Part shown: positions 27,119 through 49,771 of the stretch, piece after piece
How the letters are laid out: each line of letters begins with the position of its first letter
How positions within the stretch are numbered: position 1 is the first letter of the stretch
Origin: Marsupella aquatica
Lineage: Eukaryota > Plantae > Marchantiophyta
Reading direction: 5' to 3'
NCBI GenBank assembly: GCA_973895155.1
Contig: OZ316899.1
Coordinates: 705,573 to 769,572, forward strand
Length of the DNA stretch: 64,000 nt
Translations under genes and position numbers: made by a program
The notes under the pieces: model-generated
The model's database searches: none
Told to the model about the DNA's origin: nothing
The model's input: only the letters and a program-made list of their open reading frames with translations

Positions 27119-28607
27119 TGTGGAACTTGACTACCTTAACACTTAGCTCCGGCATCGCTGACTTCGACGCCGAGCTCCCTTATGGTCCAGGCCTGGATAG
27201 GCCATCTGGGGAGGACTTAGCATGGGGAGACTTGTGGGCAATGAGACGTGGCACTAGCGAGGCAAGGGGCCAAGCTGGGGACACACACTAAGGACTTGGA
27301 CTAGCCTATGGCTGGTCGGGTCAAGGGAAAATGGGCCAGGCTCAAGGATGGCCGTCCGGACCGTTGGATGGACTTTGAGTTTTGAGGGCTTGGGAGTGAG
27401 CTCCTCTTGGGCCCAAGGCCAATGGAGTTGACGCCATTGGCAGCGGATGCTTGGGGCGCAAGTTGTGGCCCAATCCGGGATGGGCCGGTCGGGGACCCTG
27501 AGCGGCGATCAGACCTAAGGGCCTAGGCATGAGCACTGGGTCGGCCTGGTCACAACGGGCTAAGGCACTCCGCTTGCGGATGCCTATCAAGAAAGTTATG
27601 GGCGTTGCCAGTTGGTGGCGCACCCATTATGCGCGATGGGATCTGGGTTGGGGGCCAAATGTTTAGGGACCAAAGCTGGTCCGGGGGTGGCAGGTCTCCA
27701 GAAGCATATATGAGGGGAGTGGTGTCTCCCTGGTGGCTAAGGCCGAGCCGAAGTCGTGAGCCACGGCGGTCGCGACACTAAGGGAAACTGCCAAACCGAA
27801 ATGGCGATATCTTCCCAACGGGAAGTCCGTTGGAGGACTTCTTGAGTGCGTTGGCAAGCTCTTGAGGAGGGCTACGCCCTCCTGAGCTCAGATGGGTCCA
27901 GGAGTGCCATGGGTTTTCGTGGTTTGCGGGTGTTAGCTCGCCCGCTTGCCAAATCCTGCCGAACAGCAGCCAAGCCACGTTCAGCCTCCCAAGGGAGCTT
28001 GCGTTGGGGAGGCAAGGCCAAGTAGGTATGGAGGCTGAGTCCCAAGGGCGCTCGGTCCCTAGACCATCACTGGGGCGAACCGCGAGCGATTGTTAGAGTC
28101 GGGGCCATTCTGGTCCCGGCGTGTTGAGACAAGCTTGGGACAAGCTTTAGGACAAGCTACGCTATTTGGGCCATGAGCATGTTCTGAGGTCAGGGCGGTC
28201 AGTTGGTGATGGATAGGTACGAGGGGGAACCCAGGCCGCGCCCAAGGAAGGAGCTGTTCTGGACAAACGGTGGGTGTGGGTTCTGGTTCCAGCTTATGGC
28301 ATCGGGAGGACCTATCACTGACCTATTTACCAACGTCTGTTGAACTTGAGTTAGGATGCTAGACTTGGCGAGTTCTAGATCCTAAAGGGTTACTTACCGA
28401 GGTTTTTGGTTGCTTGTGCAGATAGGGAGGACCGTTGAGTAGCGGTCGTGTTAGAGAGCAAGTGCGGCTTTGTATGGGAGGGGCCGTTGGTGGTGCAAGG
28501 GGCACTAGGTTACTTGCTCGAGGTATTCCGTGGAGGCGTTCGGGCACCAAGGGCACTTAGGCGTGAGTGCTGGGATTGGTGAGGGCGCTAGGTGGCAAGG
28601 TCCACCA
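27119..28607 (+). repeat. Second ~1.49-kb LTR-like repeat
   Basis: Homologous to 24040-25512; ends GGTCCACCA but is not followed by a PBS. Confidence 0.65.
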
Positions 28608-30128
28608 CTGCGACGCATCCCAAGGGGGAAATGGTAGTTGGACAGAGTATGTTCCAAGTGAACCAACTACCGACTCCTCCAACTTACGATGGGGCCTATG
28701 AACAAAATGGACAAAATATCCTAAGTTGGCTCTCCACGATGGAGATCCATCTGCAAGCGTGTGTTGAGCGATCCACTTGGGCTACCGCAGCCGCTCCTTA
28801 CCTAAAGGACTCTTCCTTGCCGCTAACTTGGGAAAACCTGGTTGAGGGTCTCCGTGCTCATGTCACCACTAAGTACCCAGAGCGGGACGCTCATAAATGC
28901 GTAACAAAGATGAGTTTTAGGGGTGATATCCAAAAGTTCATCACTTATTACCAGAACCAGTTGGCGTGTATCCCGAAAGGACAAGAGACCCTACATACAC
29001 AGCTTCACAACTTTATAATGAAGCTCCTGCAGTTGCATAGGGAATGAGATTTAGTTCGTTGGCCATATCTTTACCCTAGAGGGGATTACGCCTAGTTAGG
29101 ACAAGCTTAAGGAGATCAAAGAGTGGGAGCGCCCGTCCAATGTAAGGCAAGTTAGAGCCTTCTTAGGATTTATGGGGTTCTATTGGAGATACATGAAAGA
29201 CTATGCAAGGATTGCGAGGCCCCTAAACGCGCTAACGTTGAAAAACAAAGTGTTTGTGTGGACACAAGATTGCGAGTTAGCATTCCTAGAACTTAAGAGG
29301 TTAATGATAACGCCGCCGGTTCTAAAGTTACCTGAGATGGGAAAGCCGTTCGAAATTTGGATAGACGCAAGTGATTATGCCATTGGCGCCTGTCTTCACC
29401 AAGATGGGCGTCCTGTGGCCTTTGAGTCATGTAAGTTGGAAAATCACTGGATCACGCCGGAAAGGGAAATGTATGCTGTGATCTATGCGTTGAAGAAGTG
29501 GGAGATTTACCTTAGGAACGGTCCCAAAGTGGTAATCCACACAGATAGCTCGCCAGCCGGGTACTTCAGTTCTAAGCCAAGGCTGAACCCCAAGGAAATG
29601 CGTTGGCAGATGTTCTTGGCGGATTTTGATTTCAAAGTCCGCCACGTTCCAGGGAAGACAAATACGGCAGTGGACGCGTTATTGCGTAAGGACCAACATC
29701 GGGTCAATGGGATCACGATGCTCAAATCCGAGTGGCCAAAGGTTCTGGCCGTAGCGTATGGGGATGACAGGTTAGCTAAGGAATGGCAAAGCAATGGGGG
29801 TAGCCAAGGCAAGGTAAGGCATGTATTGTTGGGGTTGGATAAGATGCATAATGTCCAGTTATGGCAATACAAGCAGAGGCGTGTGTACATACCGGAGTCT
29901 CTAAGGTTAGAGGTTCTGCTAAAGTACCACGACTCGCCCTGGGGAGGGCATGGAGGACAAGCCGCTATGTATCGCAGCATGTCGCGAGATGTGTATTGAC
30001 CGGACATGAAGCAATCGGTCCTTCAACACGTGCAAAGTTGTTACTCGTGCCAAAGAACCAAACGGTCTATAGGGTAAAAGGAGGACTACTACAACCCTTA
30101 CCAGTAGTTGCGGCTCCATGGGAGTCTA
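28608..30128 (+). pseudogene. Ty3/Gypsy chromovirus remnant, 5' part: gag fragment, RT end, RNase H, integrase Zn-finger
   Basis: PTPPTYDG gag; VRAFLG..GFY, DASDYAIGA, EMYAVIYALKKW; HDSPWGGHGG...CYSCQ; ends PWES at the insertion point. Confidence 0.88.
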
Positions 30129-30486
30129 TGTGACGCCGCTGGTACGGCGGTTAATGAGTGATTCAGTCTAACTGCGCTCGGCACGCGCGTTAGGTGGGTC
30201 TTAGGCCGCTATTATTAGCATAACGACAGTATTTAGGTAATCATTAGGGGTAGGACATCATTAGGCAATAAGGGGGACTTCAAGTTCGGGCTGGCGGCGG
30301 GTCGCTATTCGCACACCCGGGTTACGAGCGTGGAGGGGCCCCTCCCTCGGGTCCGTATAACGAACTTAAGGAAGCGGCCACTGACGCACGCTGACTCAGA
30401 CCGGCGGAGTGGCCGGTACACCACAAGCGTGAGTGGTTCAACCTATGGGCGTCGAGGAGACGTCGGGGATCGACAAGCCCTCAAAG

Positions 30487-30493
30487 TATAAAA
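30487..30493 (+). promoter_or_regulatory. TATA box in the LTR, ~100 bp upstream of the LTR ORF
   Basis: TATAAAA followed by GGGG. Present at the same position in the 3' LTR; copy 2 has GTATAAAAAGGG. Confidence 0.6.
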
Positions 30494-30594
30494 GGGGAGC
30501 CAACCCTTTGTAGTGCACCAGTCCATCAGTCCGCGCGCCAGCTTCGACCCCAGCTCTCTCGTTCTCTCTAGGTCGCCACTACTATCTCCTCTGA

Positions 30595-33225
30595 ATGTCG
30601 CACACAATCCTCTCCAGCTCGGCCATTCGATTCTGGACGCAGTTCCTATCTACCGGAAGGCACTTGGCCGATTCATTGAAACACGCCAACCCGCGCCGAT
30701 ACGAGATCGAACGCGAATACGAGAGAGCCATCCGCCTAGCAGGACGACACCACTACGTCCTTAACTTTGACTACCCGTCTCAGAGCAAGCTTTACCGACC
30801 AGCTGAGGTATCTGGGTACTTCTTCAACGGAGACAAATATATCGGGTTCTGGGAAGCATTGCTTCGGCTTCCGGACGAGGTCTTCAATATCCCGGGTACA
30901 ATCGACCTGTAGCGACATCACTTCGACCACATCCCTGCCCAGGTTCGGGCTGTCATTAACGGCGAGTCCAGTACCAACCGTTCGACAAGGGCGTCCGCAC
31001 TCGCTTCGGAGAACTTCTACCAGCACCTGCAGAGCTTCATGGGAACTCGGCCATCAACCAACATGACCAACTCAGCCGGGCCCGTACCCGTACCCGTGCC
31101 CATGCAACCTCAGCTTCAGCCTCAGCCTCAGCCTAGCCAAACCCCACCACCTATCACCCAGCCAGCACAGGTACGCTCCGTCATCAACGCTGTGGATCTT
31201 AGCGATGACGACGAGGCTACCCCACCCTTGACCAGGCGGCCCAGAGGAACAAGCGCGCGGGGGGCCGACACTATATTGTCCCCACCCCCTGCTCTGACCC
31301 CAGGAGCGGCCCCAGCAGACAACATGGTGACCGTGGCCGCCCCGGGCCCGTTACCAACCGCAGTGGCACTCCCCAGGCCCGATCGGGAGGATGGGGAAGT
31401 ATCACCTTCCCCGAGTCAGTCACGGGGAAAGAAGAGGAAGGAATCCGCCACTGCATCCGGGTTACCGTTGGCCACGGTAGCCGTAGCCAAGGTGACGATG
31501 CATCGCATGGGGGAAAACGTTCACAGCAACATCCTCCATCCCAAGCATGCGGTGTACCTGAAGACTCAGGGATTTGAGCACCTCGCCTCTCTCCCCTGGA
31601 ACACTTGCAGGTACTACGGGGAGGACATGACAGAATTCGTCAAGAATTATGACGACGTACGTCAACAGACTCGGCTGCGGGGAAGGAATATGTCCCTCAC
31701 AGAAGAACGGCTCAAGATGATCTTCGGGTTACCCGAAGGTGATTATCGAGTCGAATCACGGGCTCCCGGGGGCAAGGGGGCCAAGTACCAATCTTCAAGT
31801 TTTCCCTCAGAGGGATCAGTAGACAACGGGTTCGTGATGAGGACCTGCCTCATGCCCGAGATAGTTGAGCGGCTGGAGTTCCAGAGGTACACTCTCCAGA
31901 TGATGGAACCCCGGGGGGAGATCTCCGCCGCCCAGGTTATCCAGGTCGAGAACTATCGACCTAGGAAATGGGCGTCGTACTTCGCTAAGAAATTCCATGA
32001 AGAGATGGAGCGGCGAAGGAAGACGTTGTACATTGGCGGGAAGACGTATTTCGCTAGCCACATCGAAATCATTCTTGAGTGGTACGCCCGGTTTGATCGA
32101 CGAACCCTTCCCCGCATCAACGTTACAAAGCTGGTCCCAGCTAGGTGGGTTTTTCCGGCATTGGAGAGACGGCCCCAACCCGAGGCCCGAAGTCCAGTGG
32201 ACACGCCAGCTTCACCCACCCCACCTCCACAAATAGCTGTAATCGTACCCGAGGAGGCGCCGGAGGGGTCGGTCGTCGCAACCGTTGATGCGACCCAACT
32301 AGCCGGGCTAAGTACAGAAGTTGGTACGGCAGAGGTCTTACCCGAACCCGGGTCTCCCAAGGACCCGCCGGTGGCAATTCTGGAGAACCGGACATCGCTG
32401 CAGGAGGACACTCCAGCCCCTTCCAACGTTATGTCCCCAGGGCTGGACGTCACTGCCCCGGCCCCTGCGCGTGTTGATGTCTGCCCGTGCCCAAATCCGG
32501 ACAGGCACAACTTGGACCACCCGGAACTCTTCGTATAGGGTACGTTTCTGAACGGGCTTCTGGGAGATTTCTCTCATCAAATTGCCCGGGATACCGGGGA
32601 GTTCATGGCCCGGAAGGTAGCCTGTTTCTTCAATCAGGAGTTGGTTGCCGCCGTAAAGGCAGGTCGGGCCCAGTCGGAGGCCCTTCAGAGGATAGAGCGG
32701 TACCGGGTGGAGTCCGTGTACCTAAAGAACGAAGTGGCGGCTCAAGAGGCTGAGCTTCTGCAACTACGACCCAAGGTTGCAGCCGCCGATGAGTTGTTAG
32801 CAAAGGCGTACGCTCTTACCGCCCTAGCCGAACAGGCCAAAGCTGGGAACGAGGCCGAGATTACACGACTCCGGAACCAGATTGACAGTTTGAAGAAACA
32901 AGCTGTCACCTGGCAGAAAGACCTGGAGGAGGCCGAGGAGCGAGCCCAGCGGGACGCGACGGAGATAGCCACGCTGCAGGCCGAGATGGCGTGGCTCCAA
33001 ACCGAGGCCAAGAAGCAGGACCAGCTGGCGAGTAAACTGACGAGCGACGCCCAGCAGCTGGAGGAGGCATGTCAGGAGGCAGCAGAGGAGACGGATGCGG
33101 CGAGGTGAGAGAACGAATCTCTGCTGGACCAGGTCCAGCTCCTTGAGGCGGACAATGACAGGCTTCGAAGGCAGCGGGATGGCCGTTCCCATTCGGGCGG
33201 CTCTGGCAAGCGTGCCAGGCATTAG
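30595..33225 (+). pseudogene. LTR-encoded ~876-aa ORF (plant-transposon-protein-like core, Pro-rich linkers, C-terminal coiled coil)
   Basis: One frame with three point stops (30910, 32536, 33106) that are sense codons CAG, CAG, CGA in the 3' LTR. Confidence 0.9.
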
Positions 33226-34135
33226 CGGCGGAGTAGGAATAGATTAGGATTAGGATTGGCTTAGTCAGGCTCTTGGGACAGGCACCTGCCTTAGGTACAG
33301 CAGCGCTGCCCTGCTGTCCAGCCTGCGTAAATTAGGATCTTCTAATAAGACACAGCCATTTTCTGGCCTGACTGTCAGCTTAGTTAGGACCTTAGTCAGC
33401 GAATCTTCAGCGTGAGGACACCCCGTTCCTCGGCTCTTAGTATTTAGTGCACCCCTCGGTAGAGGCAGGGGGGGTTTTTAGTTTCAGAGTCGGACATCCG
33501 CGGGACATGCGGGGAGTCCCGACCGCTGGGAATGACAGAGTACCAAGGGGAGGGGGTAGGACTAAGCTCGCCGGGCGAGTGCGGAGCCGGGCTCCGTTGT
33601 AGTGTGCACCCTTGGCCTTGAACCTGTGCATTCCAGGGCTGTCGTGTCAACTAAGTGTACGCATATGTTCCCTTTGTAGTAAAATCCTTTCCCATCATTT
33701 TTCCTTCGTGTAAATCGAGATTGTATGCATGTGTGCGCATATGTGTGTGGGTTTCTCGTATATGGGTGGCAGCGCCGGGCCGAACGCACTACCCGAGACG
33801 TGCACAGGGTGCAGCCTGCGGGTAAGTGGTTGCGAGCACGGGTTGAGGACCTGTATCATCGAATCCGGATCGAAGGCGGACAGCACGAAGGCTTAGAAGC
33901 CCTTAAGCCGGGGTCGATCCTGCTATCGACTAAGGTACGTTCCGGCGGCGGAACACAAACCATACCTAGGAGGTGTCCGTATTTAGCAGTATGCGCACTT
34001 AGCGCTAGTTTACGAGAATAAGGTGCATTACGTGCTTCCCTTCCTGCCCGAACCCTCAGATTTACGAGGGATGTGCCCGTCTAAGCTGAAGTCTGAGTTA
34101 AGGCCGAAGCCTACGACGTGACATAGCCTTTGTTT

Positions 34136-34153
34136 TGGCGCTAGATGGAGGGG
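34136..34153 (+). promoter_or_regulatory. PBS TGGCGCTAGATGGAGGGG, tRNA-Asn-like
   Basis: Complementary, with one mismatch, to the recalled plant tRNA-Asn 3' end (...CCUCCUUCUAGCGCCA). The same PBS occurs at 49216 and 57634-57651. Confidence 0.7.
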
Positions 34154-34246
34154 GCACTCTACATATCGTAGAGGGGAGACATGTGCGTATTCACCTAGGC
34201 AGGATACATCAGGACGTAGTACTAACCATTGCATTTATATGAGTAA

Positions 34247-37200
34247 ATGCCCGTCACTCGTTCTCAAGCAGCTTACTTGAGGAGATTGACCAGCGAACGA
34301 GAAAGTGCAACCGCAACAAGCTCCGACTCGTCGGGCTCGGAGGACTCACAATCGTCCCGACGTATGAACATACCCCCGGGATCTTCGGGGTCCGGTTCGA
34401 CCGGCCCTGCTGCGGTTCCACCACCACCACCACCACCACCACCACCTATGGCAGCCGCTCCACCGGTGGCCCGCGCTGCTCAGGCGCCTCCACAAATATC
34501 GCAACGATCGCGATTTCATTATCGACCTTTCAAAGGGCGTCATGGGGATGATCCGGATGAATGGTTGGATGAGTTTGAAGCCACTGCTAAAGCTAATGGG
34601 GAAGACGCCATTAAGCTAACCGTCCTCCCGGGAGTGATGCGGGGAGAAGCTCGTCCATGGTACAACTCGTTACCACCCAGGACTACCTGGGCACAATTCC
34701 AAGCTGCATTGCTGCAGGAGTTTCGTGCCATTGGATCAGAACAACGTTCTCTATTAAAGATTGGCCAGCTTTGCATGGAAAAAAAAGAGTCCCTGCGGAA
34801 GTTCATTCAGAAGTTTCAGAAACTTGCGGCCAAGATCCGGCCCAGGCCAGGAGACGCGCTCCAGCTTACATGGTTCCTTCATGGTTTGCCCACGAATATG
34901 CAATTCTGGGTACGCCAGAATAATCCAATTTCAATGCAGGCGGCCATAGCGTGCGCTGAAACTTACCGGGAGTCCACCTATAACTCCCGGCGGAGCCAGC
35001 GAGCACGCCGCAGGAAGGGTAAGTATGAAACCTTCAGTGACAGTGACTCCGAATCGGACGACGAGAGGAAGAAGAAACGCAAGAAGAAGAAGAAACATTG
35101 TTCGACCTCGTCCAGCTCCGAGACGGAATCCAGTTCGGATTCAGCTTCAAGCATCGGATCCTCTACCTCCAGTTCATCAGGAAGTGACTTGGAGAGCGAA
35201 AGCCGGAGCAAAAAGAAGAAGAGACGAGTGAAGAAGGAGGGGAAGATTAAACCCCGGGCGCGAAGAACGATACCAGATCCAAAGGCTGCCGAAGCAGACA
35301 AGCTGAACGAAATCACGGATCGACTCAAAGCACTGTCAGTACATCTTGCAGAAAAGCCGGTGGAGAAGAAGAAGCCATCTGAGATTCGAGCCCATGCGTG
35401 GTGTTCAAAGTGCTTCCAATCCGGCCATGTGGTGCAGGAATGCCCAAGGTGGAAGAACCGAGTTCACCAAGTAGAGCTGGATGATGTTGACAACCCGGGC
35501 CCCGAATCGGAGTCCACGGAGTATTTCTTTGAGGACCCTCCTGATTCCGTGTACCAGATTTCAACGGTAGGTCCGCGTAATTTAGCGGGTAGAACTGCGT
35601 ACCCCTACCCAAGTAATGGTCGGAGTTTCCAGGTTATCAGTAACCCGAGCATCCCTCCTAAGCCAGGGATTTGGCGGTCCCCGGTTTGTTACAACTGTGA
35701 AAAGCCAGGACACTTTGCGAGGGAATGCACCGAACCAAGACGTCAGGGAGATGGCCGAGGCACCCCACTATGTCAAGTTTGCAAAACGGAGGCTCATTCC
35801 ACGGCCAACTGCCCGTTGGTAATCGCTGGTCGAACGAGTGCGGCTAGACCGGCCCAGGCTGGACCAGTCACGAGCGATGCAGTCGTCCAAATGATTGCTG
35901 TAGAATGGCAAGATGACAACACCGAGTGGGTGAATCTGGTGGACGTGGCGGAACACCCTAATCCATTGGATGAGGCCGAGTGCTACCGAGTGTCGACAAG
36001 GGCCGAACGGAAGGAAGAAAAGACGGAGGAGAAACGGAGGAAAAAGAAAGATACTACTCCGGTGCAGCCAGCGATAAATATACCCCCGGAAAAGGACGAT
36101 GACTACCGACGGGACGACCCGAAGCTGTTTTTTCCCCGCATCGAAGAATTGGTAAAGAAACAGCTGGAGGCTTACGAAGCTCGGGAATACCAGAAGGCAA
36201 TCGATAAGGACATCAAAGCAGCCGAGACAGCCCGACGTCAGGAGCAAGAAAAGCAAGATAAACAAGAGGAAGCCAAGCAGCAGCCAACGAAAGAAACAAA
36301 GGAGGACTATGATATTAAGGAGGACGTGAAGAGTTGCCCGGTTACAGCGACGGTGGGGCAACTGCTGCAGAACAACCCACAGTACAGACGACAACTGAGG
36401 GAGTTGCTCATGGGTCGCCGAAGGAGGAGACTACCCCGAGTTGGGAGTGCGGACTGCAACATGATATGCGAGGACCTTGGAGCGCCGGACATCTCGATCG
36501 AAATTAATAACTGTACCATCAAGATGGTTCTTGTAGACGGAGGAGCGGGAGTCAACATCATGACTGAAGAAACGTCAGTCAAGTTAGGATACCTCACGTA
36601 TCAACCCACGGCCCGAGCTATCAGATTAGCAAACGGGGCAAGGGTCCTCCCATTAGGCACGCTCACACGAGTCCTCACTCTGGTGGGAGGGGTAGAGTTC
36701 TATCTCAACTTCTTAGTCATGAGGCCGGTTTGTCCCTCCTCTTATCCGGTTCTTCTGGGCAGGCCGTGGTTGTACGGTGGCCGCGTAGTCACGGATTGGG
36801 GAAAGAAGGAGCTACGGTTCGGAAAACCCACCGTACGGGTATCCTGGGCAATGGACGATTATCAGGGAGAAACCCCACAAGGACCCGAGGAATATGATTC
36901 GGAGACCTCGGAGGAAGAGGAACTCAATATGATCGAACTCATCTCGTCCCTATCCGAGGAAGATGTCTTCGGAGTTGAAGCAACCCGAGAAACACATCTC
37001 CTAAATTACCCGAGGGCTGCCATTGAGTCCACCCCAAGTACATCTACTGTCGGGGATGAGGAAACGCACGAACAACTCGTCGAGACGGAGGACACGGCTC
37101 CAGCTAAGCAGGGAGCCGAGGCTACTCCTTCCATTTCAGAGCCTCGTAACCATGAACCAGCCCAACAACCGCCTGAGGCCGGAAACTCGAGACCGAGACA

Positions 37201-40200
37201 TAAAAAGCGAGTCTCATGGGATCCGTCCATTCCGCAATTGGAGGAAGTAAACCCCATCCTGAGACCAATCCCGGTCCCACCCATGTACGGAGGGGTTCGG
37301 TTAGCTGAGCTTGACGCGAGCCTGGACCCGAGTCTGCGAAACCAGGTTGAAGTCATCAGGAAGGAGCACTACCGGAAGTACACTATTGGGATGGACAAAT
37401 CTTTTAACCTGGGCCACGCTCTGACGGGGAAGGCTGAAAAATCCATCCAAGCTTTGCTCAAGGAATATGAAGATGTGTTTGCATGGAGTCATCATGATTT
37501 AACAGGCGTCTCCCCCGAGTTGGGAGAACACACAATCGATCTGAACCTAGGAGCCCATGCGGTACGACAGCGACAACGTCGCATGAATCCGAGGTACTCC
37601 ATCTTAGTGAAGGAGGAAATTGATCGTCTCCTCGCCGCCGATATCATTTACCCGGTAATGGCCAGCGACTGGGTCTCTCCCATTGTCATTGTACCAAAGA
37701 AGGGAGGTACGGATGGAAAACCTAAGATTCGTATCTGTCAGGACTACCATAAGCTGAATGACGCAACCCGAAAAGACCATTACCCATTACCATTCACGGA
37801 TATGGTTCTAGATATGGTGGCCCGAAATGAAATCTATACATTTCTTGACGGGTATTCAGGTTATAACCAAATCTGGATTCGTCTCGCGGATCAGCTCAAA
37901 ACAACTTTCACTATGGAGTGGGGAACGTTCGCATTTCGGAGGATGCCTTTTGGTCTGTGTAACGCCCCGGCTATGTTTCAGCGCCTTATGATGAATATCT
38001 TCCACGATTTCCTACGGGAATTTTTGGAGATATTTATCGATGACTTTGCCATCTTCGGAACCGTTGCCATGCACCCCGAACACCTACGACGAACGTTGCA
38101 ACGATGCCGAGATGTTAACCTCAAACTACATCCCGCCAAATGCTTCTTCGGGGTAGAGGAGGGGGTGTTACTCGGGCATCGTGTGTCCAAACGGGGCATT
38201 GAGGTGGACCAAGAGAAAGTTGCGGCCTGGATGGCGGTGGTGTTCCCCTTGGATCAAAAAGCAGTACGATCCTTCTTGGGCTGCGTAGGGTATTACCGCC
38301 GGTTCATTAAAGACTTTGCTAAAATTGCATTGCCCTTAACTGAGATGATGAAGAAGGACGCAGCGGTCGAGGAGACACCCCGAAGACGGATTGCTTTTGA
38401 GGAACTCCGTAAACGACTCACCACCGCGCCTATCATGGTCACCCCAGACTGGAATAAGGAGTTCCACGTGTATGTCGATGTGTCAGGGTTCTGTATCGGA
38501 TCCGTACTTAGTCAGCTAGATGAGGATGGACGTGATCACCCCATCTATTTCGCTAGCCGTCAACTATTTGCAGCCGAAAAGAATTATTCCCCCACTGATC
38601 GAGAAGCTTTGGGAATAATCTACTCGTGTAAAAAGTTCCGACACTATCTGCTAGGCTACAAGGTCATTTTCCACACGGATCATGATAGCCTGAAGTACAT
38701 GGTCAACAAAGCGGATGTGACAGGACGGATAGCCCGGTGGGTGCTACTTCTCCAGGAATTTAATTACGAAGTTCGGGTTCGGCCAGGAAGGGTACACCTC
38801 AATGCCGATTTCTTTTCACGACTGGACGGCGTACCAGTCGATCAGCCAATTGATGATATTTTTCCGGATGAGGAGTTGTTCCACGTGGGGGAAGGGACAC
38901 CAACGTGGTACGGCTCAATAATCACCTTCCTTTTAACGGGCCCCATCCCTGACGGCATCAATCAGGAGGCCGCCGCTGTGTTTTTACGGAAAGCCGGGCC
39001 TTACGTCATGATACAGGGTCACCTACATAAGGAAGGTATTAACGGAAAGTTACGACGCTGCTTAGAGTATAAGGAGACACTTATCGTGATACGGGCCCTG
39101 CATGAAGAAGAAGCTGGAGGCCATTTCGCGGCAGTTACGACAGCCCGAAAGATTCTGGACTCGGGGTATTGGTGGCCTACGTTGCATCGGGATGTACAGC
39201 GCTTCATTAAGGGCTGTGACTTGTGTCAGCGAGCGGGGGCCCCGAGGCGGGCTCATCATCACCCGCTCACATCTGTGCTTCCATTGGCACCATTCGAAAA
39301 ATGGGGAATTGATTATATCGGACCGTTCACTCCCGTTACCCGAAGGCGAAGGTGCAGGTACATCCTATTAGCTATTGATTACTCCACCAAATGGGTCGAA
39401 GCGCGGGCTACGGTAAAGGACGACGCCGCAACCAGTGCCAGATTCTTATACGAACAGATTTTCACCCGATTCGGACCGCCCTTAGAATTGGTAAGCGACC
39501 GTGGAACCCACTTCCTCAATGACACCGTAGCCCAGCTTACGGAGCGTTACCTAGTCAAGCACCGCAAGACTACCCCATATCATCCTAAAGCCAACGGGAT
39601 GGCGGAGAGAGCAAATGGTATCATTGGGAAGATCCTCAACAAAACTGTAGCTGCGCACAAAATGGATTGGGATGATAAGTTGTACGCGGCGGTGTACTCG
39701 TATAATCTAGCTTACAAAACTACTACGAGTCACAGCCCGTACTTTCTGGTGTTCGGCCAACATTCGTTGGTGCCCGTCGAATTTGAAGTGCACACTCCAC
39801 GGGTCAGCATTCGGGATCGCTTACCTGAATCTGAAAGTCTGTCAGACCGAGCTTATCAGATTGAAGCCTTGGAAGAAGCACGGCTACTGGCAGCTCGACA
39901 CACCGTGAAGAAACAGGCAACTTCGAAGAAGCAGCACGACAAAGGACTACGGAGGGTCGACGTCGTGGCAGGCGATCTAGTCCTTCTGTACGATAGTACG
40001 TACATGCAGTTTCCAGGGAAGCTGCATACCCGGTGGTTAGGGCCCTTCCTTGTCAATCAGATCTACCGAAACGGATCTTTGGAGCTTGCGACGTATGCCG
40101 GCGATTTACTCCCCACGCGAATCAGCTACGATCGTGTAAAAAAGTACCACCATCAAGATGACGACGCCGATAGCGATGTTCGCGAGGACGCTTCACAATT

Positions 40201-40246
40201 AAGCAGGGAGCTATGTGACGCCGCCGGTACGGCGGTTAATGAGTGA
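34247..40246 (+). CDS. Gag-Pol polyprotein, 1999 aa: gag, CCHC knuckles, aspartic protease, RT, RNase H, integrase; no chromodomain and no extra RNase H
   Basis: CYNCEKPGHFAREC; LVDGGAGVN; RICQDY..LN, FIDD; DVSGFCIG, REALG; H..H...C..C, GIDYIGPF, SDRG, ERAN, GPF. Athila-like WYGSIITFL. The frame runs 33 nt into the 3' LTR. Confidence 0.97.
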   Translation: MPVTRSQAAYLRRLTSERESATATSSDSSGSEDSQSSRRMNIPPGSSGSGSTGPAAVPPPPPPPPPPMAAAPPVARAAQAPPQISQRSRFHYRPFKGRHGDDPDEWLDEFEATAKANGEDAIKLTVLPGVMRGEARPWYNSLPPRTTWAQFQAALLQEFRAIGSEQRSLLKIGQLCMEKKESLRKFIQKFQKLAAKIRPRPGDALQLTWFLHGLPTNMQFWVRQNNPISMQAAIACAETYRESTYNSRRSQRARRRKGKYETFSDSDSESDDERKKKRKKKKKHCSTSSSSETESSSDSASSIGSSTSSSSGSDLESESRSKKKKRRVKKEGKIKPRARRTIPDPKAAEADKLNEITDRLKALSVHLAEKPVEKKKPSEIRAHAWCSKCFQSGHVVQECPRWKNRVHQVELDDVDNPGPESESTEYFFEDPPDSVYQISTVGPRNLAGRTAYPYPSNGRSFQVISNPSIPPKPGIWRSPVCYNCEKPGHFARECTEPRRQGDGRGTPLCQVCKTEAHSTANCPLVIAGRTSAARPAQAGPVTSDAVVQMIAVEWQDDNTEWVNLVDVAEHPNPLDEAECYRVSTRAERKEEKTEEKRRKKKDTTPVQPAINIPPEKDDDYRRDDPKLFFPRIEELVKKQLEAYEAREYQKAIDKDIKAAETARRQEQEKQDKQEEAKQQPTKETKEDYDIKEDVKSCPVTATVGQLLQNNPQYRRQLRELLMGRRRRRLPRVGSADCNMICEDLGAPDISIEINNCTIKMVLVDGGAGVNIMTEETSVKLGYLTYQPTARAIRLANGARVLPLGTLTRVLTLVGGVEFYLNFLVMRPVCPSSYPVLLGRPWLYGGRVVTDWGKKELRFGKPTVRVSWAMDDYQGETPQGPEEYDSETSEEEELNMIELISSLSEEDVFGVEATRETHLLNYPRAAIESTPSTSTVGDEETHEQLVETEDTAPAKQGAEATPSISEPRNHEPAQQPPEAGNSRPRHKKRVSWDPSIPQLEEVNPILRPIPVPPMYGGVRLAELDASLDPSLRNQVEVIRKEHYRKYTIGMDKSFNLGHALTGKAEKSIQALLKEYEDVFAWSHHDLTGVSPELGEHTIDLNLGAHAVRQRQRRMNPRYSILVKEEIDRLLAADIIYPVMASDWVSPIVIVPKKGGTDGKPKIRICQDYHKLNDATRKDHYPLPFTDMVLDMVARNEIYTFLDGYSGYNQIWIRLADQLKTTFTMEWGTFAFRRMPFGLCNAPAMFQRLMMNIFHDFLREFLEIFIDDFAIFGTVAMHPEHLRRTLQRCRDVNLKLHPAKCFFGVEEGVLLGHRVSKRGIEVDQEKVAAWMAVVFPLDQKAVRSFLGCVGYYRRFIKDFAKIALPLTEMMKKDAAVEETPRRRIAFEELRKRLTTAPIMVTPDWNKEFHVYVDVSGFCIGSVLSQLDEDGRDHPIYFASRQLFAAEKNYSPTDREALGIIYSCKKFRHYLLGYKVIFHTDHDSLKYMVNKADVTGRIARWVLLLQEFNYEVRVRPGRVHLNADFFSRLDGVPVDQPIDDIFPDEELFHVGEGTPTWYGSIITFLLTGPIPDGINQEAAAVFLRKAGPYVMIQGHLHKEGINGKLRRCLEYKETLIVIRALHEEEAGGHFAAVTTARKILDSGYWWPTLHRDVQRFIKGCDLCQRAGAPRRAHHHPLTSVLPLAPFEKWGIDYIGPFTPVTRRRRCRYILLAIDYSTKWVEARATVKDDAATSARFLYEQIFTRFGPPLELVSDRGTHFLNDTVAQLTERYLVKHRKTTPYHPKANGMAERANGIIGKILNKTVAAHKMDWDDKLYAAVYSYNLAYKTTTSHSPYFLVFGQHSLVPVEFEVHTPRVSIRDRLPESESLSDRAYQIEALEEARLLAARHTVKKQATSKKQHDKGLRRVDVVAGDLVLLYDSTYMQFPGKLHTRWLGPFLVNQIYRNGSLELATYAGDLLPTRISYDRVKKYHHQDDDADSDVREDASQLSRELCDAAGTAVNE

Positions 40247-43200
40247 TTCAGTCTAACTGCGCTCGGCACGCGCGTTAGGTGGGTCTTAGGCCGCTATTAT
40301 TAGCATAACGATAGTATTTAGGTAATCATTAGGGGTAGGACATCATTAGGCAATAAGGGGGACTTCAGGTTCGGGCTGGCGGCGGGTCGCTATTCGCACA
40401 CCCGGGTTACGAGCGTGGAGGGGCCCCTCCCTCGGGTCCGTATAACGAACTTAAGGAAGCGGCCACTGACGCACGCTGACTCAGACCGGCGGAGTGGCCG
40501 GTACACCACAAGCGTGAGTGGTTCAACCTATGGGCGTCGAGGAGACGTCGGGGATCGACAAGCCCTCAAAGTATAAAAGGGGAGCCAACCCTTTGTAGTG
40601 CACCAGTCCATCAGTCCGCGCGCCAGCTTCGACCCCAGCTCTCTCGTTCTCTCTAGGTCGCCACTACTATCTCCTCTGAATGTCGCACACGATCCTCTCC
40701 AGCTCGGCCATTCGATTCTGGACGCAGTTCCTATCTACCAGAAGGCACTTGGCCGATTCATTGAAACACGCCAACCCGCGCCGATACGAGATCGAACGCG
40801 AATACGAGAGAGCCATCCGCCTAGCAGGACGACACCACTACGTCCTTAACTTTGACTACCCGTCTCAGAGCAAGCTTTACCGACCAGCTGAGGTATCTGG
40901 GTACTTCTTCAACGGAGACAAATATATCGGGTTCTGGGAAGCATTGCTTCGGCTTCCGGACGAGGTCTTCAATATCCCGGGTACAATCGACCTGCAGCGA
41001 CATCACTTCGACCACATCCCTGCCCAGGTTCGGGCTGTCATTAACGGTGAGTCCAGTACCAACCGTTCGACAAGGGCGTCCGCACTCGCTTCGGAGAACT
41101 TCTACCAGCACCTGCAAAGCTTCATGGGAACTCGGCCATCAACCAACATGACCAACTCAGCCGGGCCCGTACCCGTACCCGTGCCCATGCAACCTCAGCT
41201 TCAGCCTCAGCCTCAGCCGCAGCCTAGCCAAACCCCACCACCTATCACCCAGCCAGCACAGGTACGCTCCGTCATCAACGCTGTGGATCTTAGCGATGAC
41301 GACGAGGCTACCCCACCCTTGACCAGGCGGCCCAGAGGAACAAGCGCGCGGGGGGCCGACACTATATCGTCCCCACCCCCTGCTCTGACCCCAGGAGCGG
41401 CCCCAGCAGACAACATGGTGACCGTGGCCGCCCCGGGCCCGTTACCAACCGCAGTGGCACTCCCCAGGCCCGATCGGGCGGATGGGGAAGTATCACCTTC
41501 CCCGAGTCAGTCACGGGGAAAGAAGAGGAAGGAATCTGCCACTGCATCCGGGTTACCGTTGGCCACGGTAGCCGTAGGCAAGGTGACGATGCATCGCATG
41601 GGGGAAAACGTTCACAGCAACATCCTCCATCCCAAGCATGCGGTGTACCTGAAGACTCAGGGATTTGAGCACCTCGCCTCTCTCCCCTGGAACACTTGCA
41701 GGTACTACGGGGAGGACATGACAGAATTCGTCAAGAATTATGATGACGTACGTCAACAGACTCGGCTGCGGGGAAGGAATATGTCCCTCACAGAAGAACG
41801 GCTCAAGATGATCTTCGGGTTACCCGAAGGTGATCATCGAGTCGAATCACGGGCTCCCGGGGGCAAGGGGGCCAAGTACCAATCTTCAAGTTTTCCCTCA
41901 GAGGGATCAGTAGACAACGGGTTCGTGATGAGGACCTGCCTCATGCCCGAGATAGTTGAGCGGCTGGAGTTCCAGAGGTACGCTGTCCACATGATGGAAC
42001 CCCGGGGGGAGATCTCCGCCGCCCAGGTTATCCAGGTCGAGAACTATCGACCTAGGAAATGGGCGTCGTACTTCGCTAAGAAATTCCATGAAGAGATGGA
42101 GCGGCGAAGGAAGACGCTGTACATTGGCGGGAAGGCGTATTTCGCTAGCCACATCGAAATCATTCTTGAGTGGTACGCCCGGTTTGATCGACGAACCCTT
42201 CCCCGCATCAACGTTACAAAGCTGGTCCCAGCTAGGTGGGTTTTTCCGGCATTGGAGAGACGGCCCCAACCCGAGGCCCGAAGTCCAATGGACACGCCAG
42301 CTTCACCCACCCCACCTCCACAAATAGCTGTAATCGTACCCGAGGAGGCGCCGGAGGGGTCGGTCGTCGCAACCGTTGATGCGACCCAACTAGCCGGGCT
42401 AAGTACAGAAGTTGGTACGGCAGAGGTCTTACCCGAACCCGGGTCTCCCAAGGACCCGCCGGTGGCAATTCCGGAGAACCGGACATCGCTGTAGGAGGAC
42501 ACTCCAGCCCCTTCCAACGTTATGTCCCCAGGGCTGGACGTCACTGCCCCGGCCCCTGCGCGTGTTGATGTCTGCCCGTGCCCAAATCCGGACAGGCACA
42601 ACTTGGACCACCCGGAACTCTTCGTACAGGGTACGTTTCTGAACGGGCTTCTGGGAGATTTCTCTCATCAAATTGCCCGGGATACCGGGGAGTTCATGGC
42701 CCGGAAGGTAGCCTGTTTCTTCAATCAGGAGTTGGTTGCCGCCGTAAAGGCAGGTCGGGCCCAGTCGGAGGCCCTTCAGAGGATAGAGCGGTATCGGGTG
42801 GAGTCCGTGTACCTAAAGAACGAAGTGGCGGCTCAAGAGGCTGAGCTTCTGCAACTACGACCCAAGGTTGCAGCCGCCGATGAGTTGTTAGCAAAGGCGT
42901 ACGCTCTTACCGCCCTAGCCGAACAGGCCAAAGCTGGGAACGAGGCCGAGATTACACGACTCCGGAACCAGATTGACAGTTTGAAGAAACAAGCTGTCAC
43001 CTGGCAGAAAGACCTGGAGGAGGCCGAGGAGCGAGCCCAGCGGGACGCGACGGAGATAGCCACGCTGCAGGCCGAGATGGCGTGGCTCCAAACCGAGGCC
43101 AAGAAGCAGGACCAGCTGGCGAGTAAACTGACGAGCGACGCCCAGCAGCTGGAGGAGGCATGTCAGGAGGCAGCAGAGGAGACGGACGCGGCGAGGCGAG

Positions 43201-44213
43201 AGAACGAATCTCTGCTGGACCAGGTCCAGCTCCTCTAGGCGGACAATGACAGGCTTCGAAGGCAGCGGGATGGCCGTTCCCATTCAGGCGGCTCTGGCAA
43301 GCGTGCCAGGCATTAGCGGCGGAGTAGGAATAGATTAGGATTAGGATTGGCTTAGTCAGGCTCTTGGGACAGGCACCTGCCTTAGGTACAACAGCGCTGC
43401 CCTGCTGTCCAGCCTGCGTAAATTAGGATCTTCTAATAAGACACAGCCGTTTTCCGGCCTGACTGTCAGCTTAGTTAGGACCTTAGTCAGCGAATCTTCA
43501 GCGTGAGGACACCCCGTTCCTCGGCTCTTAGTATTTAGTGCACCCCTCGGTAGAGGCAGGGGGGTTTTTAGTTTCAGAGTCGGACATCCGCGGGACATGC
43601 GGGGAGTCCCGACCGCTGGGAATGACAGAGTACCAAGGGGAGGGGGTAGGACTAAGCTTGCCGGGCGAGTGCGGAGCCGGGCTCCGTTGTAGTGTGCACC
43701 CTTGGCCTTGAACCTGTGCATTCCAGGGCTGTCGTGTCAACTAAGTGTACGCATATGTTCCCTTTGTAGTAAAATCCTTTCCCATCATTTTTCCTTCGTG
43801 TAAATCGAGATTGTATGCATGTGTGCGCATATGTGTGTGGGTTTCTCGTATATGGGTGGCAGCGCCGGGCCGAACGCACTACCCGAGACGTGCACAGGGT
43901 GCAGCCTGCAGGTAAGTGGTTGCGAGCACAGGTTGAGGACCTGTATCATCGAATCCGGATCAAAGGCGGACAGCACGAAGGCTTAGAAGCCCTTAAGCCG
44001 GGGTCGATCCTGCTATCGACTAAGGTACGTTCCGGCGGCGGAACACAAACCATACCTAGGAGGTGTCCGTATTTAGCAGTATGCGCACTTAGCGCTAGTT
44101 TACGAGAATAAGGTGCATTACGTGCTTCCCTTCCTGCCCGAACCCTCAGATTTACGAGGGATGTGCCCGTCTAAGCTGAAGTCTGAGTTAAGGCCGAAGC
44201 CTACGACGTGACA
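40214..44213 (+). repeat. 3' LTR (4,000 bp)
   Basis: Preceded by the PPT AAGCAGGGAG and CTA; ends at the TSD. Confidence 0.95.
40680..43316 (+). pseudogene. LTR-encoded ~878-aa ORF, 3' LTR copy
   Basis: Same frame throughout; point stops only at 42492 and 43236, which are CAG and GAG in the 5' LTR. Confidence 0.9.
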
Positions 44214-45294
44214 GTCTATCTCCATGGACTTCATTGTTGGGTTACCTGAGTCCCACGGCAGTAACTCCATCTTAACAATCGTGGATTGTTTTTCCCAGAT
44301 GGCGTATTTCTTGCCTATTACGAAGATGGTTTCGGCCCGAGAGGTTGCCAATCTAGTATTTGACAATGTCTTTCGACAATGGGGATTGCCGTTGCATATC
44401 CTGTCCGACCGCGATACCAAGTTCACGGGCCATTTCTGGAAGGCGTTGTTCCGGTTATCCGGAACAGACCTGACTAGGGGATCAGCGTATCATCACGAGA
44501 CAGATGGCCAAACAAAATGGGTGAATGGTATCGTGGAGGACTACTTGTGTCACTTTGTGATGGCCAATCAGAAGGATTGGGCGAAGCATTTAATAATGGC
44601 CGAGTTTAGGTATAACTCGACCAAGCATTCGGTGACGGGGTTTGCGCAGTTTGTGTTGGCCACAGGGAGGACGCCAAGGGCGCCCTCCTGGTTTATAAAT
44701 CCGAAAGCTTGGCGGACGGAAAGCAAGGTTCCTTTTGTAGACAATTTTATTCAAGAGTGGCGCTTTGTTGGGGAAGCGGCTACCAAGGGTATGACCCTTG
44801 CCCAAAGTCAGTACAAGAAGCAAGGGGATAAACATTGACGTCAGGTAAGTTTTGAAATTGGGAAGAGCGCTTAGTTGCAGTTAAGACCTGAGCAATACCA
44901 TGGGAACATAACTAGGAAGCTGGCTCCCAGATATGCGGGGCCCTATCGTATCATCCAATGGGCCCACAAGGATAATCCGGTTTTGATGGTGTTGGACCCA
45001 AGGAAATGGGCGTGGGCAAAAGCTACCATGTCAGCCAACTCAAGAAGTTTGTCAAAGACGATGATCCCAACCGGGATCAAGTCTTGCATCCGGACGCCTT
45101 GCTGGTGGAGGAGTTTGAGGTGGAGGCAATTCTGGACCACTGTTACAAACGCAAGTTGGGAAGGCAAATCTTAGAGTATTTGGTGAAGTGGGCTGGCTAT
45201 GATCAGGCCAAGAGTACTTGGGAATCGGAAGAAAATTTGGGTAATGCCTCAGAGATCCTTGGAAGCTATTGTAAGCAAAGCGGCCTACCACCGT
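44214..45294 (+). pseudogene. Chromovirus remnant, 3' part: integrase core, GPY motif and chromodomain
   Basis: SMDFIVGLP, ILSDRD, HHETDGQ, YAGPYRI; EFEVEAILDH...EYLVKWAGYD...STWESEENL. Confidence 0.92.
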
Positions 45295-48200
45295 TGTGAA
45301 CTGGTACAGGCAGTTGTAGCTACCTTTGTGAGTTGTATCCTAGTGTGGTAGAGTGGTCAGACCGTTAAAGAACACTTTAACCTCTAAAGACCTGAATTCG
45401 TTCCCTGTAAGAGTGAATGAAAAGCAAATTGGTACTAAAAAGATCAAATAAGATGTTGATTTCGGTGGAGGTGCAACTACATTTTGCACGGGAGGAGGAT
45501 GCATGCTTTACGGCCATGCAGACCAAGAAGTACCAAGGCTTCATGGCCGGATCCGGCTTAGAGGCCTTTGTAAGATTACCATGGCTGAAGCCGGAGGTAC
45601 CGGAGTCAGACCTATTAGAATTCGTGGGGTCATGGGAACCCGAGACCAATTGCACGAGGATATATGGGAAGGATTTCTATCTTACTCCCAAGGTAATTGC
45701 CGAAGTGTTTGGCTTGCCGATAGGCAATAAGACCAAAGTTGATACCAGGAAGACCTTGCCTGACAAGGAGTTCCGGTCGTTCCCCGGGCCATCAACAAAG
45801 AATGGCTTCTTCCGGAACACCTGCACCAACCCGCACATAGGAGAGATGATCGACTTCTTGCGGGTGACCATGCATTGTAACTTGCCGAGGGCAGAGATCG
45901 GCAAAGCACAGGTCTATCTGGCAGAAAGGCCAGACCCAAGCTGGGACTACAACGGGTACCTCCTCAACCAATTGAAGAAGATCTTAAAGGAGGAGCAGCA
46001 GGTAATCGGCATGGGGAGCGTATCGCGGCTTGGCTATCACATGCCGCTGTTGTGCCGGTATGCCAGAGGTCAGACTTTTGCCCCAGTACTTCCCCTGCAG
46101 GTAAGGGCACCCGAGGAAGCTCCAACGCCGAGGCCGTTGGCTGAGAAGCCTCAACCACCTGTTAGCCCTACGATCGAGCAGGTGTTTAGGCCCAGGAAGG
46201 AGGACTTGCCGATGCAGCAACCAGGCATGCAGAGTCTGCTGAAACTACTGGAGAAAGAAAAGAAATCGGCATCGGCAACAACAACGGCAACGGCAACAAT
46301 GCAGGACACTACTACAGAGGTAGGCCTACACCGGCTCACAAGAGAAAACCCCTTTGCTGGAGACAAGGAGAGAATCAGGCCGGAATCCAAGCCAGGTGTT
46401 CGAATGTATGTGGGAATCTCAAGCTCCAAATCTGAGGCAGAATTGCCTGAAGCTCCTACCGACGAAGAGGAGAGGGAGAAGCCGGACGTCCAAGAAGTAG
46501 AGGAGGCAATGGAGGACTGCAGCCATGATAATTCCGGCTATGGGTCGGACCATCACGTTCCAGGAGTAAGGACCTGTGGCCGGTTTGTCCCCACACTTCC
46601 AAGGGTAGTGCGAGGGGACCCCAACCAGCAGAGTAGCCCTGAGTCTCCCCCACCAGACGTTGCTCCCCCGAGCTTTGACGGCATAAAACAGACGGTGCAG
46701 GAATTTCAGGAGCGAATCAGGTAGGAAGAGGAGGCAGCCCTGGCTAGGGAAAAGGATTTACCAGGAGGAGATTGGCCGGAGGACATCAGGCGGCTAGCCA
46801 AAAAAGGAAGCAAACCTCTAGCCACGATTGAAGAGATCCGCAGGACGGCTTGGGAGCAGAGGCCGCGATGGGCGATGCCGATCACTTCTACTTACTCCAC
46901 CTACGCTAAGAATAGAGCCATGGAGTATGGTGAGATGTGTGGGGAACTTGCGCTCGGCATCTTTGGAGAGGAGTTGGAGGTAGGACCCTTTTTCCATAGG
47001 GAGCAGTTGGAGAAGCACCAATTAGAAGAAGCGGTGGCTTTAGAGAGAAGCAAGAAGGACGAGGTCATTCGGCGGCTTAGGAGGATGGAAGCCGAGATTG
47101 AAGATCTAAGGGCGGCCAAGAAAGCCCAAGATGAACTGCGGATTAAACGACATGAGCTGAACATCATGTAGGGGCAGTTGGACACCGCGCAGGCTGATAA
47201 TCAGAATATCAAGGAAAAACTGACTCAGTCGCAGGGAGAGTTGGCCGACACGATCAAAGAGAGGGAGAAGTGGAAGCAAGAGCTGAAGAATACAGAGGAG
47301 GCCCACATAACAGCCAACAGCCGGGCCATGGCGGAGACCCAAAGAAAGGAATGGGCGTTGAAGGGGGAGCTCGAGAAAATCCGCGGAGCCCTTGAGCAGA
47401 AGGAGGCCGAGTTAGGGAAATCCTATCAAGGGATTATGGCGCTGCAGCAGGAGCTTGCGTCCCTGACGGCCAGCTTCAAGGCCGACCTAAGGGAGAAGGA
47501 CGAGATGCTCGAACAGACTTACGCCAAGATGAACCAGATGGAGTCTGTCATCATTGCAGAGCTCGACAAGGAGCTAAGAGCAACCCGGGAGGAGAGGACT
47601 ACCTTGAAACAAGAACGGGAGGAAGCCCAAAAGGAACTAGAGGAGGCACGCAAGGACCTGGATGAGACCCAGGAGGAGTTGGAGGAAATCACGAGGAAGA
47701 TGGAGAACCTCCAGCGGCGGGCCGACAACCAAACGGAGCGGTTGAAGAAACAAGCCGCAGTATTTAAGTGCTTGTCTTCATCAGGCCCAACTCCAATTGG
47801 GGCAACCAAGTTACCAGGAGTGGTACTGGCCGAAGAAAAAGCCACGCCACCTGCACCAGTGCCGGAAGTAAGTGGGAAGGGGAAGGGACCAGCTGCCGAA
47901 CCAGAAAAGAAGAAAAAGCGGAAACCTTCAGGGTCAAGGAGTAATCCGACTCCACAAGCCGTGGTGACCAAGGAGGTAGAACCAGCACCATCCTCCGGCA
48001 TGAATACGGCAATAGATCCCGCTATCATCACAGGTGGGGGTGGTGCGGCCCAAGCCGAACTACTCAGTAATGAGGCCGGTATTCCAGATCCGCCTCTTGA
48101 GCAGGCCGGGGAGACCGTAGCCGAGGCTGAGGCCGTAACCGATTCCCGAGCCGATGCCGACGCCGATGGTGGACCCAGTCAGGCCGATGGAGAGTTGACT

Positions 48201-49760: not shown

Positions 49761-49771
49761 GGCATTTAGGG

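Follow-up and report, generated by a model that had tools for sequence, protein, structure and literature searches.

A putative VANC-like protein gene within the long terminal repeats of an Athila-like retrotransposon from the liverwort Marsupella aquatica

Extra open reading frames (ORFs) carried by the plant long terminal repeat (LTR) retrotransposons Athila, Tat and Ogre have had an open function for two decades and are usually called env-like. Among retroviruses, sag of mouse mammary tumour virus (MMTV) and nef of human immunodeficiency virus (HIV) are accessory genes located in the unique 3' (U3) part of the LTR. Here we describe an LTR retrotransposon of the liverwort Marsupella aquatica in which a protein gene of about 880 codons, the LTR-ORF, lies inside each LTR of approximately 4 kb, together with a second, divergent family of the same layout. 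Both were found in a single stretch of 64,000 nucleotides (assembly GCA_973895155.1, contig OZ316899.1, positions 705,573 to 769,572 of the forward strand), referred to as the window; all coordinates are those of the window.

Two groups of described systems are relevant. Athila elements in REXdb have a 5-bp target site duplication (TSD), a length of 7.3-22.8 kb, mostly a single ORF and a primer binding site (PBS) of tRNA-Asp, tRNA-Asn or tRNA-Ala type, whereas Phygy and Selgy have 4-bp TSDs (PMC6317226). The extra ORF of described Athila elements lies between pol and the 3' LTR (PMC7264820), an internal, nuclear Athila ORF with Transposase_32 has been reported (PMC11728184), and Athila is present in a liverwort (PMC12885004). 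The second group comprises proteins that oppose silencing. VANC21 removes methylation and recognises non-coding DNA by dense motifs that all point the same way (PMC5735166), and MAIN/MAIL proteins counter Polycomb silencing at DNA motifs (bioRxiv 2024.09.27.615353). VANC and MAIN have a common fold, and coiled coils are the predicted means by which VANC and the Athila domain oligomerise (PMC13547354). Anti-silencing by transposable-element PMD proteins is an earlier speculation (PMC5418596), and according to a meeting report such systems combine a coiled coil with a DNA-binding pocket (PMC11512509).

Structure of the element and constraint on its LTR-borne gene

Self-comparison of the window revealed a complete retrotransposon, copy 1 of the family that we call A, with the following features:

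30129-44213, plus strand: whole retrotransposon copy 1, 14,085 bp
30124-30128, plus strand: left TSD, 5 bp, GTCTA
30129-34123, plus strand: 5' LTR, 3995 bp, TG...CA
30487-30492, plus strand: TATA-like box TATAAA at LTR position 359, 108 nt 5' of the LTR-ORF ATG and followed by a pyrimidine tract; putative promoter
30595-33225, plus strand: LTR-ORF of the 5' LTR, 2631 nt, 3 internal stops
34136-34153, plus strand: PBS, 12 nt from the LTR end, within 24 nt identical to family B
34247-40246, plus strand: gag-pol, a single open frame of 1999 amino acids with gag, CCHC, protease (PR), reverse transcriptase (RT), ribonuclease H (RH) and integrase (IN); it crosses the polypurine tract (PPT) and stops 33 nt into the 3' LTR
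40201-40210, plus strand: PPT, within the pol frame, 3 nt 5' of the 3' LTR
40214-44213, plus strand: 3' LTR, 4000 bp, TG...CA; public-contig joint at 40214
40680-43316, plus strand: LTR-ORF of the 3' LTR, 2637 nt, 878 codons plus stop, 2 internal stops, 604 codons open
43313-43572, plus strand: cluster of same-strand TTAG(G) words after the LTR-ORF stop; another such cluster occupies LTR positions 62-133
44030-44058, plus strand: 29-nt motif with a 5-bp hairpin, 155-183 nt from the LTR end; also present in family B (48952-48979)
44214-44218, plus strand: right TSD, GTCTA

The LTR-ORF occupies LTR positions 467-3103, and the internal region of copy 1 measures 6090 bp. An earlier note on this DNA had set the LTR limits by the TSD, a restored host integrase, the PBS and the PPT, and all four were confirmed, with the correction that the PBS, present at 34136, is not adjacent to the LTR. 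The TATA box also lies where it had been placed, about 100 bp before the ORF. The insertion target is the integrase of a chromovirus, whose frame continues in one register from ...APWES before the element to ISMDF... after it; Integrase_H2C2 lies to the left, rve to the right and a chromodomain further on. Since pol overlaps the PPT, copy 1 is without a 3' internal region. The PBS is presumably of the tRNA-Asn type; no tRNA gene for comparison was found in the window.

The TG...CA LTRs, TSD, PBS, PPT and the order PR-RT-RH-IN are those of Ty3/gypsy elements. No Pfam match to aRH or a chromodomain was obtained in the polyprotein, nor in its PR-RT, RH-IN and C-terminal stretches scanned singly. 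Judged by sequence features, the element is an Athila-like Ty3/gypsy retrotransposon: set against the REXdb lineage table (PMC6317226), it agrees with Athila in TSD, size, frame and domains, and disagrees with Phygy, Selgy and Tat.

Several details of the surroundings were also recorded. A terminal inverted repeat reaches 4 nt internally past each LTR end (34124-34127 and 40210-40213), and the gap between LTR and PBS, 12 nt in family A and 4 nt in family B, bears on cDNA end processing. The host chromovirus (24046-30128 plus 44214-45460) has its RT deleted; upstream, direct repeats (75-81%) suggest tandem LTRs and contain PBS-like words that we take to be of the Met type.

A second copy of family A is inverted, running from 61683 to 49982, and is 91.6% identical to copy 1:

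57664-61683, minus strand: 5' LTR of copy 2, 4020 bp; LTR-ORF at 61216-58559, 2658 nt
51568-57663, minus strand: internal region of copy 2, gag-pol broken into three pieces
49982-51567, minus strand: 3' LTR of copy 2, truncated after 1586 bp, with the first ~370 codons of the LTR-ORF

As previously noted, the three full LTR-ORF copies (2631, 2637 and 2658 nt) are free of frameshifts, and all three indels within them are in frame (6, 18 and 3 nt); indels in the non-coding LTR measure 1, 1 and 2 nt. A fourth, partial copy (51100-49982, minus strand) has a 1-nt deletion. Public contigs added two LTR-ORF indels, of 6 and 24 nt, among the rows listed (12 of 19).

The earlier note had described a protein gene inside long LTRs, a reading to be refuted by a ratio of non-synonymous to synonymous substitution rates (dN/dS) near 1. 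Between copy 1 and copy 2 the ratio came out at 0.32 (95% bootstrap 0.24-0.42), or 0.42 at a transition weight of 4, which supports a selected protein gene inside genuine long LTRs. By part, dN/dS was 0.19 in the N-terminal domain, 0.48 in the low-complexity part, 0.17 in the core, 0.45 in the linker and 0.39 in the coiled coil; gag-pol gave 0.09. Synonymous changes made up 111 of 232, against 71±7 expected under a trinucleotide-matched null model, and none of its 5000 draws was as high; the linker (p 0.32) and the coiled coil (p 0.07) taken alone had a non-significant excess under this null. Overall, the comparison of two independent insertions shows the LTR-ORF to be under purifying selection. 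Within copy 1 the LTRs differ at 36 of 3994 aligned sites, with 10 synonymous changes against 8.4 expected and 5 stops; 28 of the 36 differences are CG/CHG transitions, and together they look like post-insertion decay. The observed/expected CpG ratio was highest in family A (0.89-0.96 versus 0.37-0.78), a comparison confounded by age and GC content and unused as evidence.

Every LTR-ORF copy in the window carries stops, and most public contigs have a sense codon at the stop sites 30910 and 47169. It had been claimed that nonsense codons fall at different positions in each copy. This proved incorrect: both 5' LTRs have a stop at codon 106, and copy 2 has one at codon 51 in each of its LTRs. The stops at codon 106 are parallel hits, since they arose by different codons and both 3' LTRs are sense there. 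At codon 51 a parallel CpG hit is possible and inheritance is likelier, so that the LTR-ORF of copy 2 was probably null already at insertion and the copy probably moved without its own protein, which fits a supply of the protein in trans. The claim of an ORF intact at insertion does not extend to copy 2.

Copy 2 presented further features of its own. Its target is a LINE-like (long interspersed nuclear element) reverse transcriptase at 61684-64000, the translation being judged by eye, and at 49700-49982 its cut 3' LTR is joined with a stretch of the family B ORF in inverted orientation (46516-46719, 97%), which abuts the family B gag. Synonymous divergence between the gag-pol regions of the two copies (34247-40243 versus 57540-51538) ranges from 0.13 in the capsid to 0.56 in RT, an unevenness suggesting mosaic recombination between subfamilies.

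Neither family B nor the predicted fold discussed below figured in the earlier note. The family B copy lies at 45.4-49.7 kb:

45463-49211, plus strand: family B LTR remnant, 5' cut at ~45463; marked by a step in depth, by loose contig ends at 45463 (3 of 4 runs) and by joints at 49211
45474-48299, plus strand: family B LTR-ORF, with a homologous core (28% identical) and coiled coil; 2 internal stops
49216-49700, plus strand: family B PBS and gag start; gag 38% identical to that of family A

Its order is LTR-ORF, 910 nt, LTR end at 49211, a PBS region with 24 nt identical to family A, and gag. The loose ends indicate that this copy lost its 5' part. The same layout in both families implies that it is older than a deep split. 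At its cut 5' end the copy is fused to the chromovirus 3' region, and its contig depth in run X2 exceeds that of family A.

The element or part of it was present in 6 of the 7 listed public runs, under 4 organism codes, none recorded as RNA. Contig depth is a crude measure that gives no copy number and serves to show that the LTR-ORF behaves as LTR: in two deep runs the median summed depth of the family A LTR-ORF was 4.6 and 6.0 times that of the internal region, each full LTR bin was deeper than each internal bin, and in 4 of 4 runs the depth of the family B LTR-ORF exceeded that of its gag by a factor of 3.7-5.1. Ratios above 2 between LTR-ORF and internal region hint at solo LTRs. On the basis of depth, we also rejected short LTRs and an internal ORF for family B.

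The encoded protein and its predicted fold

Three parts of the LTR-ORF protein were distinguished, given here on the 3' LTR of copy 1:

40692-41054, plus strand: conserved N-terminal helical domain, ~aa 5-125; dN/dS 0.19; no clear fold match
41565-42194, plus strand: core domain, ~aa 296-505; predicted VANC/PMD/ATHILA-ORF1-like fold; isoelectric point 9.4; dN/dS 0.17
42747-43265, plus strand: predicted heptad coiled coil, ~aa 690-862, followed by a basic C-terminal tail

A phmmer search returned 43 relatives at E 0.001 or better. Ten homologue clusters were looked up, 4 of them with a species name; with the profile search below included, the liverwort Calypogeia fissa accounts for all seven distinct species-named cluster records (P0009, P0010, P0013's cluster, P0022, P0059, P0040 and P0048). 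One homologue, P0044, is stop-free over 906 aa and has the N-terminal domain, core, coiled coil and basic tail. Word-based searches found 0 homologues with the single core, 0 among proteins of 1587-4530 aa and 4 with a profile. Metagenome scans for genomic context confirmed none of 231 stretches, and 11 of 11 loci with the PBS pattern were without an ORF or gag-pol match. The Calypogeia 'unnamed protein products' may be LTR-borne ORFs that were mislabelled.

No Pfam family, with PMD, DUF1985, ATHILA and Transposase_32 included, reached its cut-off in any of 39 aligned members, one of which has Transposase_32 at E 0.059. A search of PDB sequences gave no match. As the earlier note had stated, a transmembrane segment is absent from the LTR-ORF protein, the highest 19-residue hydropathy being 1.0.

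The AlphaFold model of the core has a confidence score (pLDDT) of 90.9, and Foldseek placed VANC21 bound to DNA at rank 1 (E 0.34, TMq 0.52), with a TMq at or below 0.16 for all others. VIA also ranked VANC21 first, at Z 7.8 and an rmsd (root-mean-square deviation) of 4.4 over 204 aligned residues, against 2.5 for the runner-up; a second core model gave E 0.16 and Z 8.1, rmsd 3.9 over 201 aligned residues. The predicted match is thus middling in score, yet lone and domain-wide. With the homologue P0059 as query, Atlas retrieved DUF1985, PMD and Transposase_32 by features at 0.77-0.82, and PMD, ATHILA and Transposase_32 by structure at TM 0.57-0.62 by target. These moderate scores are consistent with membership of the core in the VANC/PMD structural group by a shared core fold. 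The resemblance to plant-transposon proteins that the earlier note had seen therefore stands for the predicted fold, via P0059, and not for the sequence. The core is basic, and R391, R428 and R442 are kept as K/R in ~90% of rows. The N-terminal domain was modelled confidently; its fold search, made with the domain not folded in isolation, returned generic helical matches alone (Z <=5.1). Nothing convincing came from a viral fold search (best E 0.013, TMq 0.22).

Origin, expression and possible function

We consider it almost certain that the LTR-ORF is a real gene borne by the LTR. During reverse transcription, whatever lies between PPT and PBS ends up in both LTRs. The RNA order of pol, spacer, extra ORF and non-coding tail is that of Athila, but the PPT sits in the last pol codons, a position from which the cassette would be carried in full into each LTR. 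If the PPT had moved to the end of pol, an Athila 3' extra-ORF cassette would have entered U3 in one step, and LTR-LTR recombination would leave the cassette in solo LTRs. Each solo LTR might be an expression cassette, as the earlier note had inferred. The TATA box near the LTR start would drive the LTR-ORF, and the genomic RNA would start after it, with a short R region and gag as first ORF; the 29-nt motif of both families may serve this start or R. Location in U3 is, in our view, probable. The earlier note had held that a multi-kb R, a second promoter or splicing is needed to translate gag-pol; none is required with the ORF in U3 and a start of the genomic RNA within the last few hundred bases of the LTR.

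A possible but less likely arrangement is the same gene in a multi-kb R or U5, with RNA starting at the TATA box, the LTR-ORF translated first, like the Ogre 5' ORF, and gag-pol expressed from a spliced or separate RNA. It is favoured by the fact that the sole clear TATAAA of the LTR precedes the LTR-ORF, and by a TACTAAC word plus AG right before the gag ATG in both copies. However, a strong-stop DNA of ~3.6 kb would be required, copy 2 does not keep the single good splice donor after the LTR-ORF, no branch word is evident by eye before the family B gag, and the overlap of pol and PPT suits a shifted PPT.

For the protein placed in U3, the mode of action that we envisage is a coiled-coil oligomer that would bind short same-strand motifs in the non-coding LTR and keep LTR promoters unsilenced. 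TTAG occurs there 20 times against 7.6 expected (6 on the opposite strand), in two clusters. Given the predicted VANC-like fold, we lean slightly towards an anti-silencing or chromatin-activating role, and to about the same degree towards anti-silencing in trans. In that case a self-protecting gene would likely be left in each LTR that the element scatters. Taken as a whole, a selected LTR-borne gene, likely in U3, likely encoding a VANC-like DNA-binding anti-silencing protein that acts in trans on its own family, is a reading that we put forward tentatively. More doubtful is its extension to a widespread liverwort Athila-like lineage with an LTR-encoded VANC-like factor, whose solo LTRs would form a dispersed gene family that unsilences the lineage in trans and lets null copies move.

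Several observations speak against this reading. Identity between VANC21 and the core is 9-10%, the Foldseek E values are 0.34 and 0.16, and a Z near 7-8 is called common by the tool itself; Atlas feature scores are leads only, and P0059 is 23% identical over the core. The dN/dS comes from one element pair. TTAG sites are not significantly better conserved than other sites (3/80 versus 70/932, p=0.26), and their enrichment, found post hoc, is common to families A and B though VANC targets diverge fast. No clear TATA box follows the LTR-ORF for a downstream start. The 28 of 36 CG/CHG transitions suggest that inserted copies were methylated. The same fold also occurs in host MAIN/MAIL proteins and in Athila/Ogre extra ORFs, without demonstrated anti-silencing.

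With such points in mind, an LTR-borne accessory factor with another job, such as integration targeting, nuclear import of particles, a chromatin scaffold or plain transactivation, has to be considered, and we regard it as unlikely without dismissing it. Fold says nothing of function, knowledge of Athila-domain and PMD proteins is limited (PMC13547354, PMC5418596), and the long coiled coil and basic tail suit scaffolding or import. Neither a tandem target array of the VANC kind nor a family-specific motif array was found. On the other hand, the sole solved structural match is a DNA-bound anti-silencing factor, core plus coiled coil is the reported anti-silencing design (PMC11512509), and MAIN/MAIL likewise oppose silencing at DNA motifs (bioRxiv 2024.09.27.615353).

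An artefact of assembly, or a structure that is tandem or recombinant, with short true LTRs and a duplicated internal extra ORF, is very improbable and already largely ruled out. PPT-like words do occur upstream of the LTR ends, at a distance of 220 nt in A and 335 nt in B, and in run X4 the post-ORF part of family B was 3.4 times deeper than its LTR-ORF, which also counts against the LTR-borne ORF as a family trait; ORF-less derivatives of family B may exist. However, the repeats enclosed by the TSD are 4 kb long, the limits are identical in two independent insertions, the last bins of family A are no deeper than its LTR-ORF, and the family B rise begins near 48600, 5' of its PPT-like word. 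The short-LTR or tandem check of the earlier note went in favour of long LTRs, the LTR-ORF having LTR-level depth. The words near both LTR ends were considered as relic PPTs, a weak hint that we set aside, as PPT-like 11-mers match 21 places in the window. Finally, a captured non-functional ORF or an env-like membrane protein, to which the stops in all window copies might point, is equally improbable given the purifying selection, the sense codons at 30910 and 47169 in most contigs and the lack of a hydrophobic segment.

If the wider reading of a liverwort lineage with a VANC-like anti-silencing factor in its LTRs is true, sequence-specific anti-silencing would exist in an LTR retrotransposon, the Athila ORF1/PMD extra ORFs would gain a function, and the fold would be placed in retroelements outside flowering plants. 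Solo LTRs are usually seen as dead ends of element removal; the location of the gene turns LTR-LTR recombination, a host deletion route, into gene retention. As a non-membrane member of the extra ORFs with the predicted fold of the sole solved transposon anti-silencing factor, the protein lends itself to a direct test. Pipelines that seek extra ORFs only beside gag-pol, or that call solo-LTR ORFs host genes, would miss or mislabel such genes. REXdb methods sought extra ORFs up- or downstream of the polyprotein (PMC6317226), and LTR-borne ORFs could be hidden among its elements.

Other features of the window and comparison with known systems

Elsewhere in the window, pieces of a CACTA transposase (Transposase_21, DUF4218) at 7688-11536 (minus strand) adjoin a SET-domain ORF, with a short TTTAGGG array nearby at 10507-10538; the region is possibly a transposon carrying a histone methyltransferase domain. 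Unknown ORFs at 17031-22551 (plus strand) are likely DNA-transposon cargo; the last is an Ulp1 peptidase (PF02902, E 8e-28), and a DNA-methylase match there is weak and below cut-off (PF01555, E 0.004). Two tandem arrays of 4.6 copies each were found, with a 169 bp unit at 4434-5206 and an 81 bp unit at 15158-15596, the latter within an open frame.

In the literature covered, which left out most subscription papers, we found neither a plant LTR-borne gene nor a VANC-like factor of a retrotransposon. Extra ORFs and the VANC/PMD/ATHILA fold group are already known; not found there were the LTR location, its persistence in two divergent families, and a predicted VANC-like fold in a retrotransposon whose host is probably not a flowering plant. 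Like the LTR-ORF, MMTV sag and HIV nef are genes within the LTR that are copied to both ends; they differ in being retroviral and in encoding unrelated, much shorter proteins. Retrosat2, RIRE3 and FRetro3 have LTRs above 3 kb, an extra ORF and 2.6 solo LTRs per full element, but belong to the Tekay lineage, with ORF0 upstream of gag-pol and treated apart from the LTR (PMC3485330).

At the level of the protein, VANC21/DUF1985 factors of VANDAL Mutator-like transposons (PDB 9LNJ, 9LNK) are the best structural match, over ~200 residues, and share the core plus coiled coil; same-strand motifs in non-coding DNA may be a further likeness (PMC5735166). In contrast, identity is ~10%, VANC belongs to a class II element and the LTR-ORF to a class I element, and VANC has been called dicot-specific (PMC13547354), whereas the named homologues here are from a liverwort. 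PMD proteins (PF10536; PMD-A of Gypsy elements, PMD-C of MAIN/MAIL) fall in the same predicted fold group via P0059; PMD-A is Gypsy-encoded, and an anti-silencing role of transposable-element PMDs has been speculated (PMC5418596, bioRxiv 2024.09.27.615353). They differ in that no PF10536 sequence match was found here, and the survey covers angiosperms and, in the parts available, reports no LTR location.

The closest element overall is Athila (non-chromovirus|OTA|Athila in REXdb), to which the 5-bp TSD, the 14-kb length, and the single GAG-PROT-RT-RH-INT frame without aRH or chromodomain all correspond; the PBS, presumably of the Asn type, would agree as well. Its extra ORF (PF03078 ATHILA, PF20167 Transposase_32) is likewise related in predicted fold and coiled coil; the LTR-ORF differs in having no Pfam sequence match and an additional N-terminal domain. 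Whereas described Athila extra ORFs occupy the internal region, on one side or the other of gag-pol (PMC6317226, PMC7264820), the element described here has no 3' internal region and carries its gene within both LTRs.

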